Notes: a model not told the origin generated them from the sequence alone. A stretch of 382 nucleotides of DNA from Escherichia coli (GCF_003334385.1 NZ_QOWN01000186.1); one strand, 5' to 3'. Positions 78 to 302 are shown, counted from the first letter of the stretch. Made by a program: numbers and translations.

Positions 78-80
78 GTT

Positions 81-103
81 TTAACATCGAAGACAGATGT
101 TAA
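81..103. other. Perfect interrupted palindrome TTAACATC-N7-GATGTTAA, a potential stem-loop 4 nt after the tRNA-Lys CCA
   Basis: 81-88 (TTAACATC) is the exact reverse complement of 96-103 (GATGTTAA), with a 7-nt loop GAAGACA (89-95). The sequence is directly visible; the function is unknown. Confidence 0.6.
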
Positions 104-157
104 GCGTGTAGGATAACGTTGCGTCAGCAGCGGCCCGTAGGGCGAGCGAAGCGAGTC

Positions 158-175
158 ATCCTGCACGACCCACCA
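158..175 (+). repeat. 18-nt perfect copy of the tRNA-Lys 3' end (ATCCTGCACGACCCACCA: T-arm 3' strand, acceptor 3' strand, discriminator, CCA) inside the Lys-Val spacer
   Basis: Window 158-175 is identical to window 60-77 and to 364-381. The two bases before it (156-157, TC) differ from the tRNA (58-59, GA). It is followed by CT (176-177), as the genuine tRNA-Val CCA is followed by CTC. Confidence 0.9.
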
Positions 176-190
176 CTAATGACGGTGGGT
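168..190 (+). other. Inverted repeat ACCCACC / GGTGGGT with a 9-nt loop, a potential hairpin that would sequester the CCA-containing tRNA-Lys 3' fragment
   Basis: 168-174 (ACCCACC) pairs with 184-190 (GGTGGGT); the loop is 175-183 (ACTAATGAC). A second GGTGG follows at 193-197. No U-tract follows, so it is not a typical intrinsic terminator. Confidence 0.4.
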
Positions 191-226
191 TCGGTGGAAG
201 TAGTTTGTAGTATCCAGCGCAGTATC

Positions 227-302
227 GGGTGATTAGCTCAGCTGGGAGAGCACCTCCCTTACAAGGAGGGGGTCGGCGGTTCGATCCCGTCATCACCCAC
301 CA
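227..302 (+). tRNA. valZ: tRNA-Val, anticodon UAC (window 260-262), 76 nt with encoded CCA (300-302)
   Basis: Read directly: acceptor stem GGGTGAT/ATCACCC, D-arm GCTC-AGCTGGGA-GAGC, anticodon arm CCTCC-CTTACAA-GGAGG, T-arm GGCGG-TTCGATC-CCGTC, discriminator A, CCA. Matches the E. coli-type tRNA-Val(UAC) from memory. The paralog symbol is tentative; valT is the alternative. Confidence 0.95.

Follow-up and report, generated by a model that had tools for sequence, protein, structure and literature searches.

How does the 3' end of a tRNA come to stand, detached from the rest of the molecule, in the spacer between two intact tRNA genes, and what is its role there? The question is raised by a stretch of 382 nucleotides of Escherichia coli DNA (hereafter the window) that corresponds to lysW-valZ-lysY, part of the lysT operon. 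It encodes, all on the given strand, a tRNA-Lys(UUU) at positions 2-77 (lysW in the K-12 numbering; called by ARAGORN, present in the MG1655 annotation and scoring 79.2 bits with the Rfam tRNA model), a tRNA-Val(UAC) at 227-302 (valZ; ARAGORN, Rfam tRNA model and MG1655 annotation) and, at 306-381, a second tRNA-Lys(UUU) that is identical to the first (lysY; ARAGORN and MG1655 annotation). The last 18 nucleotides of the tRNA-Lys gene, ATCCTGCACGACCCACCA, occur exactly at three sites on this strand, namely at the end of lysW (60-77), at the end of lysY (364-381) and at 158-175, i.e. 80 nt beyond the lysW CCA and within the 149-nt Lys-Val spacer (78-226).

The copy in the spacer matches tRNA-Lys positions 59-76, from A59 in the T-loop to the CCA, and the identity with the tRNA breaks off at 158, where GAGTC (153-157) agrees with TTCGA (55-59) at none of the five positions. 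In 200 dinucleotide-preserving shuffles of the window the 18-mer was not matched once, although up to three mismatches were allowed. The first-pass annotation had pointed out both the exact copy and its sharp 5' edge, and was right in doing so; it had placed the fragment at 158-177, of which 158-175 is indeed the repeat and the CT at 176-177 belongs to the trailer that follows. No tRNA was called on either strand of 78-226 (ARAGORN, and the Rfam tRNA model at E <= 1), the scan of the window returned neither a consensus intrinsic terminator nor a sigma-70 promoter, and the 80-nt interval between the repeats holds no credible ORF. A megablast search matched the window in every complete E. coli genome (5,426 in all), with identities reaching 99.8%. 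The spacer found a perfect match in none of the genomes, the best being 99.3% identical and differing at base 130 (G here, A in K-12).

A short-form TLR behind lysW

The 18-mer had been taken for an orphan fragment. It proved to form the 3' terminus of a larger conserved element at about 105-175, of which the operon carries five. Positions 105-175 (78-175 when the leader hairpin is included) constitute a short-form tRNA-linked repeat (TLR; Rfam RtT, RF00391). The hallmark of the TLRs is that 18-19 bp of their 3' end are identical to the upstream tRNA or rRNA (Stenum et al. 2021, PMC8144298); the last 18 nt of the element agree with the 3' end of the upstream tRNA-Lys at 18 of 18 positions, CCA included. 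The 18-mer is the defining hallmark of the family, and the finding is as such already known in kind. According to the history given in PMC8144298, TLRs were first seen in 1978 (Egan & Landy) and catalogued in 1999 (Rudd), and the catalogue is summarised there as 22 copies at 10 K-12 loci, with one to five copies per locus. Given this maximum of five per locus and the five copies found here, the copy in the window is presumably on the 1999 list.

At the level of the Rfam model, the RtT match extends over positions 9-175 with 52.8 bits (gathering threshold 45; E = 1.2e-09), of which only a part reflects homology of the spacer: model positions 1-59 fall on the real tRNA-Lys (window positions 9 to about 113, with an insertion of 44 nt), and the true homology comprises about 114-175 (model positions of about 60-130). 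The 5' part of the model is placed over the real tRNA because the short form lacks the T-arm-like 5' domain of about 40 nt. In the K-12 operon there are five such RtT matches, one behind each of the five tRNA-Lys genes, and all end in the 18-mer. The family core in the window, AACGTTGC..GCAACGGCCCG(A/T)AGGGCGAG..CGAGT(C/A), aligns with its counterparts in the tyrT and tyrV copies. In the operon on which the family was defined, tyrT-tyrV, four copies each end in the last 19 nt of tRNA-Tyr and have the core AACGTTGCC..GGCAACG(G/A)CCCGAAGGG(C/T)GA.. in common.

A comparison with these type examples (rttR/rtT) shows a shared position in a tRNA operon directly 3' of a tRNA gene, a shared order of parts (hairpin, CGGCCCGNAGGGCGAG, hairpin, CGAGT), a 3' end in which the final 18-19 nt of the preceding tRNA are copied, and a 5' strand that is complementary to the element's own 3' end. 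With about 71 nt, the copy in the window is a short form that lacks the T-arm-like 5' domain; it further differs in that it ends as tRNA-Lys rather than tRNA-Tyr, is not accompanied by a tpr-like ORF and has no entry of its own in the MG1655 or PGAP annotation. The 5S-linked TLRs rrA, rrB and rrF belong to the same family and likewise end in 18 bp that repeat the 3' terminus of the stable RNA upstream of them; unlike the element studied here, they lie between two terminators after 5S rRNA and possess an extra 5' hairpin and GGA motifs (PMC8144298).

The anatomy of the element can be followed from its 5' end, which lies on the same strand as lysW and starts 1 nt past the lysW CCA. Directly after the CCA, at 80-104, a leader hairpin termed P0 pairs 80-88 with 96-104 (core TTAACATC / GATGTTAA; seen as an inverted repeat and in minimum free energy (MFE) folds) and abuts the helix P1. 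Comparable hairpins with other stem sequences occur in Pluralibacter (AACGTC/GACGTT), Pseudescherichia (AACAT/ATGTT) and RIT691 (GACATT/AATGTC). The 5' strand of P1, CGTGTAGGAT at 105-114, has its partner at 158-167, the first ten nucleotides of the 18-mer (MFE folds, RNAalifold and pair counts). Within P1 lie the hairpin P2 at 117-132 (CGTTGC at 117-122, loop GTCA, GCAGCG at 127-132), the hairpin P3 at 133-143 (GCCC at 133-136, loop GTA, GGGC at 140-143) and the segment 144-157, which consists of GAG, a minimal P4 (G146-C152 and C147-G151 around the loop GAA) and GAGTC; elsewhere P4 is a hairpin of variable length. The first ten nucleotides of the 18-mer thus close the element via P1, which encloses the conserved P2 and P3 and the variable P4. 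The remaining eight nucleotides, ACCCACCA at 168-175, form a tail, which in MFE folds contributes to a trailer hairpin at 168-190 (ACCCACC at 168-174 with GGTGGGT at 184-190, around the loop A175-C183, ACUAAUGAC).

P1 was formed in all single-sequence MFE folds tried, including that of the whole Lys-spacer-Val precursor; in the fold of the precursor the acceptor and T stems of both tRNAs are retained, with P1 and the trailer hairpin absorbing the extra 18-mer. In most Lys-linked copies P1 contains an A-G mismatch, in place of which the copy in the window has a U-G, resulting in an uninterrupted helix of 10 bp. The base by which the spacer differs from its best match, G130, forms a G-U pair in P2; every matched E. 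coli genome has an A at this position.

Conservation of the element and pairing of its closing helix

Species-representative genomes were searched with a pattern derived from the core, GCNNCGRCCCGWAGGGYGAR. The search gave many chance matches in GC-rich genomes, and therefore we used just those matches that had a tRNA, 5S or ERIC context; the result should be read as a sample and not as a census. Beyond at least about 20 species of the Enterobacterales, genuine copies among the matches listed are present in Gilliamella, in Marinobacterium and in a Halieaceae MAG, the last two being genomes of marine gammaproteobacteria; Rfam RtT members have been reported in Pasteurellaceae. Again among the matches listed, the core is located some 50-120 nt behind tRNA-Tyr, tRNA-Lys, tRNA-Arg(ACG), tRNA-Arg(CCG), tRNA-Pro(UGG), tRNA-Pro(CGG) or 5S rRNA. 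The 18-19 nt that follow the core are those of the 3' end of the upstream tRNA in 33 out of the 42 usable copies ascertained in this way. The tRNA-like end has decayed in the other 9, all in other genomes, and its maintenance is hence not universal among these pattern-ascertained matches. Where species-specific variants of the tRNA exist, the 3' end of the element tracks them, as seen in five copies. The 18-mer did not differ once in 990 pairwise comparisons among the 11 Lys-linked short-form copies, a group drawn from several genera, as against a divergence of 11.5% in the remainder of the element. In the longer core the parts follow one another as CAAAAT-hairpin, GAACG, P2, the P3 motif, P4 and CGAGTAA, an order that was observed in five contexts.

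The pairing was evaluated on an alignment (A1) of 20 short-form copies, 11 Lys-linked and 9 Arg-linked. In this alignment 95.5% of the cells of P1-P4 are paired, compared with at most 48% when the partners are slid by 1-3 columns; for P2 the figure is 99.2%. With the same 20 sequences, RNAalifold recovered P2 and P3 completely and 7 of the 10 pairs of P1. One pair of P1 is U-A in the Lys-linked copies, G-C in the Arg-linked copies and A-U in the Arg-linked copy of P. vulneris, the tRNA of which carries a C66 to U change, and the tyrT copies possess a corresponding P1 (GGGGAAGGAT/ATCCTTCCCC). In P4, represented by the A1 column pairs 45-54 and 46-53, G-C, A-U and C-G types are found at one pair. 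P3 is invariant in A1 as well as in the larger alignment mentioned below and for that reason displays no co-variation; its motif, which is shared with the tyrT repeats, is the most conserved of the family.

Comparison of the sequences shows that the P1 helix co-varies with the type of tRNA (Lys, Arg, Tyr). Specific arguments for selection on P1 come only from the pairs on the acceptor side and from the P. vulneris change; the T-stem part could match by mere descent. A test of the longest contiguous helix gave 7.7 pairs with the cognate and 6.0 pairs with a non-cognate tRNA end (Wilcoxon p = 3e-7), a difference that is not separable from the effects of G-U pairs, of the A-G mismatch found in most Lys-linked copies and of the T-stem of the upstream tRNA itself, and the test was replaced by the fixed-column pair counts given above. 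In a MAFFT alignment of 34 cores (A2), P2 and P4 were misaligned between the short and the long forms; for this reason ERIC inserts and TLRs were compared by their architecture.

Presence and absence of the 98-bp unit

As the first-pass annotation had proposed, homologous Lys-Val spacers were compared, and the fragment turned out to be variable: it is present in K-12 and absent in ATCC 25922 and O157:H7. The operon of ATCC 25922 contains the same seven tRNA genes, with spacers of 35, 51, 48 and 33 nt where those of K-12 measure 135, 149, 146 and 132 nt. Each of these differences amounts to one unit of 98-100 bp, with a single 18-mer kept, and the ATCC 25922 operon has no RtT match at all, nor a copy after lysQ. 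In the case of lysW-valZ, exactly 98 bp and one 18-mer are missing from both ATCC 25922 and O157:H7, and the 51-nt spacer that remains was located at 1519-1569 in both sequences. O157:H7, which has six tRNA genes in the operon, is empty at lysT-valT and lysW-valZ and filled at lysY-lysZ.

With identical flanks on both sides, the unit that is present or absent between strains can be written as 78-175 (98 nt), or equally well as 60-157, owing to the 18-bp direct repeat. What remains in strains without a TLR is the native lysW trailer together with the valZ leader, 176-226 in the window, which makes up the entire 51-nt spacer of ATCC 25922 and O157. In ATCC 25922 the lysW CCA runs straight into CTAATTACTGTGGGTTCGGTGGAAG.., which corresponds to 176-226 with two substitutions, so that the trailer that pairs with the repeat tail in the window there stands behind the genuine lysW 3' end. 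The CT after the repeat had been interpreted as the trace of a former tRNA-tRNA junction; it is instead the start of this native trailer (CTAAT...), as it directly follows lysW in the strains without a TLR.

Two 18-bp direct repeats thereby make the 98-bp unit a precise presence/absence polymorphism, and recombination between them is supported. A contiguous filled lysW-valZ spacer was found in 13 of 30 genomes that were sampled evenly along the ranking, which is a rough figure; the megablast counts of filled and empty genomes (2314 and 3024) are unreliable, as neighbouring spacers were joined and mismatches in the trailer block seeding. Occupancy of the equivalent spacers in other genera is patchy. 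Citrobacter werkmanii has a near-identical copy at the lysT-valT position, from which it follows that at least that copy predates the split of the genera. For the B2 and O157 strains, which lack it, deletion between the repeats is the simplest explanation, and the element would have been lost in this way. Since whole lineages lack the element (B2, and O157 at this spacer), any function of the TLR must be non-essential, and selection on it may be weak.

Role and origin of the element

The lysT operon is transcribed as a single transcript, from which RNase P separates the tRNAs and in the spacers of which RNase E cuts; a Northern study of the operon with probes in the lysW-valZ spacer reported no discrete spacer RNA (PMC4176162). 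The annotated RttR RNA starts 8 nt past the tyrV CCA, and its 3' end coincides exactly with the repeat's CCA. RrB ends 3 nt beyond its 5S-derived repeat, which according to the authors' proposal restores an RNase E site (PMC8144298). In Actinobacillus, Northern signals were obtained for RtT-family RNAs adjoining tRNA-Lys and tRNA-Asn genes. For the tRNA-linked TLRs, a 2021 paper gives no known function.

Apart from the Northern result on the lysT operon, which counts against it, these data point to the following scenario. The element would be transcribed within the operon precursor, and its end, a copy of the 3' strand of the T-stem, part of the 3' strand of the acceptor and the ACCA of tRNA-Lys, would be treated as a tRNA end by the enzymes of tRNA 3' maturation, i.e. 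by an RNase E cut just past the CCA and trimming by exonucleases. This would yield a separate spacer RNA, about 90-100 nt long and with its 3' end at about 175, after which the native lysW trailer (176-226) could be handled as in strains without a TLR. P1 may serve to present the 3' end in a helix that resembles that of T-stem and acceptor, and may at the same time sequester the extra 18-mer, preventing it from mispairing with the neighbouring tRNAs. Any mimicry is partial, in view of the 8-nt tail that P1 leaves versus the 4-nt NCCA of a tRNA minihelix. The identity with the tRNA probably owes its persistence to selection for P1 together with local conversion or recombination, and the element would be dispensable. 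The role that appears most likely is accordingly a modest one, namely that of a dispensable, co-transcribed spacer RNA with a tRNA-like end that would be processed as the 3' end of a tRNA. Taking all parts jointly, we consider it quite probable that we are dealing with a short-form TLR that is closed by P1, polymorphic, dispensable and co-transcribed, and that undergoes tRNA-like 3' processing.

A further reading concerns the origin and not the present role of the element, and is as such compatible with the foregoing. It holds that a TLR core of about 50-75 nt is a mobile module that inserts into loops of structured RNA genes and repeats, in which case the 18-mer would represent the distal half of a partly duplicated T-arm/acceptor end of tRNA-Lys, split between positions 58 and 59. 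The module is indeed found between the TTCGA and the ATCC of tRNA-Lys T-arm copies (two loci), within a duplicated 5S 3' end (two loci), just upstream of the 5S gene in Brenneria, and in the centre of repeats at seven loci of Dickeya oryzae and between dxs and yajO in E. coli 042. We take these latter repeats to be ERICs on the basis of the ERIC1R and ERIC2 primer sequences. In long-form TLRs the cognate GGTTCGA stands immediately 5' of the core, and the lysQ-distal TLRs of K-12 and Enterobacter sp. differ by an indel of the module alone, as read by eye in a comparison where global alignment had misplaced the gap. A MITE would possess terminal inverted repeats, a short and regular target-site duplication and copies dispersed over unrelated sites; in the element, P1 is an inverted repeat of 10 bp and the core recurs in ERIC and 5S contexts, whereas the 'duplication' measures 18-19 bp (55 bp at lysQ) and no link with a transposase was found.

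Several observations nonetheless weigh against mobility. The module was not found to be associated with a transposase, with terminal inverted repeats or with a target duplication of short and regular length, it is absent from phages and true plasmids, and the TTCGA half is missing from the short form in the window. Moreover, recombination at microhomology shared between T-loops could yield the same pattern, and the copies in Dickeya were found with a pattern derived from TLRs, which biases their ascertainment. All things considered, we regard the mobile module as possible but rather unlikely.

The ERIC context constitutes a lead rather than a result, in that the apparent homology between ERIC inserts and TLRs was judged by eye from their architecture rather than with a calibrated model. 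The insert of long-form ERICs (IRUs), about 70-75 bp in length, presents the same order of parts (hairpin, GAACG, P2, CGGCCC..GGG(C/T)GAG, P4, CGA(G/A)TAA); unlike the element in the window, a long-form ERIC is a palindrome between protein-coding genes and has no tRNA-derived end. A literature search, for which key ERIC papers were out of reach, found no link between the ERIC insert and TLRs. That TLRs and long-form ERICs represent one previously unconnected mobile or recombining module, with the tRNA T-loop at 58/59, the 5S 3' domain and the centre of ERICs as its sites, is a tentative idea that we think more probably wrong than right by a wide measure. If true, P1 may have been kept since it rebuilds a T-arm/acceptor-like helix that is recognised by tRNA-processing enzymes. 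The core inside ERIC repeats, the co-variation of the closing helix with the type of tRNA, and the natural filled and empty alleles of one spacer within E. coli all make the question of TLR function easier to test. A match to the ERIC insert was found in about 12% of the E. coli genomes.

Could the repeat be no more than the neutral scar of unequal crossing-over or slippage among tandem tRNA-Lys genes, i.e. sequence without a structure or role of its own? Unequal recombination between tandem tRNA genes had been one suggestion of the first-pass annotation, and part of this reading stands: the array is tandem and varies in copy number (six tRNA genes in O157 versus seven), the repeats precisely bound the 98-bp unit that is gained or lost, the block duplicated at lysQ extends over the terminator (18 + 37 bp), as is typical of a tandem duplication, and the dispensability of the element fits as well. 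What finds little support is the notion of a bare, structureless scar. A scar should decay, yet the 18-mer is invariant where the rest of the element has diverged, and it tracks variants of the tRNA. P1, P2 and P4 keep their pairing through changes on both sides; strict conservation of the 18-mer with compensatory pairing, both of which were observed, is the outcome that the first-pass annotation had named as pointing to a selected structure and not to a recombination scar. Also the core is conserved across the Enterobacterales, with Gilliamella and the two marine gammaproteobacterial genomes as outliers among the matches listed, and the members reported in Pasteurellaceae add to the argument. 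We therefore consider a neutral scar quite improbable.

Alternatively, the excised spacer might act in trans, as a small RNA, a sponge or a titrator of proteins, by analogy with RrA/B/F (Hfq, CsrA) and 3'ETS-leuZ. RrA/B/F are members of the family and RrB binds Hfq and CsrA in vitro (PMC8144298), RtT RNAs accumulate in Actinobacillus, and tRNA spacers can function as sponges, as exemplified by 3'ETS-leuZ (Lalaouna et al. 2015, as cited in PMC8144298). The internal spacers of metZWV and 3'ETS-leuZ would share with the element that they are RNAs released by RNase E from a polycistronic tRNA precursor; in contrast to it, they base-pair with small RNAs and carry no copy of a tRNA 3' end. In contrast to RrA/B/F, the tRNA-linked TLRs are predicted not to bind CsrA, all 19 having a CsrA-binding score below 0.01 (PMC8144298). 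The original claim that rtT acts in the stringent response was, as related in PMC8144298, retracted. For the trans-acting reading neither a target nor a partner is known, a literature search for a sponge or sRNA role of the lysT spacers found nothing, and the many E. coli lineages without the element argue against it, which makes a trans-acting RNA very improbable in our view.

The reading that the first-pass annotation had named first, in which a phage or island entered the att core between T-loop and 3' end of tRNA-Lys, duplicated 18 bp and decayed to 80 bp, was rejected as a scarcely credible one: the 80-nt interval is occupied by a structured and conserved module rather than decayed phage DNA, the core was not found in true phage genomes (the three 'phage' matches are mis-filed Salmonella WGS contigs of 0.5-0.7 Mb), and this one module occurs with the ends of at least five stable RNAs, including Tyr, Arg and Pro tRNAs and 5S rRNA, which a single integrase cannot explain. 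The plasmid matches are likewise of little help to it, as 19 out of 19 were typed as non-mobilizable and several of the records are chromosome-sized, and all five Lys genes of the one operon bear a TLR. What the element does have in common with the att duplications of tyrosine integrases (HP1, P4-type) is a direct repeat from T-loop to CCA that flanks extra DNA, a block that is typical of att identity, and the existence of filled and empty alleles, the latter with a single 18-mer, a feature that is not specific to integrases; the 3' part of tRNA-Lys moreover serves as attP in the phages HP1, HP2 and S2 and in Serratia BZS1. It differs from them in an interval that is merely 80 nt long and, as the annotation had correctly stated, encodes no integrase, and that consists of a conserved RNA module instead of phage-derived DNA.

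As to how such elements are recorded, RefSeq (PGAP) marks just the fifth of the five copies in the K-12 operon, as 'RtT sRNA', and MG1655 marks none. Because of this under-annotation, RtT copies will keep being rediscovered in genome scans as 'orphan tRNA ends'.

Module position in copied tRNA and rRNA ends

In some Lys-linked copies of the tRNA-linked repeat (TLR), recovered from other genomes and compared with the K-12 lysT operon (L001 2630-2755), the module lies precisely between GCAGGTTCGA and ATCCTGC (L080, minus strand, element end at 853; L014, 60-260, minus strand), which places it at position 58/59 of a copied tRNA-Lys T-arm. At the lysQ-distal TLR, K-12 reads GATTCGA|ACCTGC, and Enterobacter sp. 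Bisph1 carries an additional 77-nt module at the same point; read by eye, the difference between the two is a second indel, of the module only. The direct repeat at lysQ is far longer than elsewhere, since it comprises the 18-mer together with the entire intrinsic terminator (AATGTAAAAAAGCGCCCTAAAGGCGCTTTTTTGCTAT) and flanks the last TLR on both sides (L001 2597-2636 and 2753-2792); the resulting duplicated terminator resembles the two-terminator arrangement described for rrnB.

The 5S-linked copies (L025, about 100-225; L078) have the layout GAGAGTGGGA, module, (CA)ACTGCCAGGCAT, which gives the impression that the 3' end of 5S has been duplicated, with the module in between. In Brenneria roseae (L104, minus strand) the core is situated directly upstream of a 5S rRNA gene, at a distance of about 25 nt, whereas the other 5S-linked copies are found downstream.

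Operon variation and flanking hairpins

Comparison of O157:H7 (L125) with K-12 (L001) and the TLR-less ATCC 25922 (L124) revealed that the operon's tRNA gene count, six versus seven, varies independently of TLR occupancy and that any mixture of filled and empty adjacent spacers can occur within a single strain. The spacer of the window is matched at 100% in no genome because window position 130 is a G and not the A that is present in K-12 and in all best-matching E. coli genomes; this change turns an A-U pair of the conserved P2 hairpin into G-U, and the structure is preserved.

Immediately 3' of the lysW CCA there is a 9-bp hairpin, P0 (window 80-104), that is common to the lysW and lysY units, whereas the lysT and lysZ units have a different leader. 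Pluralibacter, Pseudescherichia and RIT691 have hairpins in the same position, with different stem sequences. A GGTGGGT motif in the lysW trailer is the complement of the 3'-terminal tRNA-Lys sequence ACCCACC (window 168-190; also L124 1511-1535), and in TLR-less strains the modelled trailer hairpin would compete with the acceptor end of the real tRNA. In K-12, GGTGG-like motifs also occur 3' of lysT and lysZ (L001 1586-1590 and 2410-2414).

TLR-like sequences in other contexts

Some entries of the phage collection searched are 0.5-0.7 Mb WGS contigs from Salmonella, and the plasmid collection includes records as large as chromosomes; matches in either need vetting before a mobile-element reading. 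Separately, ERIC/IRU repeats of Dickeya oryzae (e.g. L111 5296-5380; loci L107-L113) and of E. coli 042 (L126 301-384, dxs-yajO intergenic region) were seen to enclose an insert roughly 75-80 nt long. Judged by eye, its order of parts matches that of the TLR core (hairpin, GAACG, P2, CGGCCC..GGG(C/T)GAG, P4, CGA(G/A)TAA); a literature search found no connection between the two. The Dickeya insert was matched in 649 of 5,426 E. coli genomes.

Finally, a predicted arginine-rich ORF of 37 aa with a TTG start overlaps the TLR on the plus strand (window 119-232) and recalls the protamine-like 'tpr' ORF annotated within the tyrT repeat.
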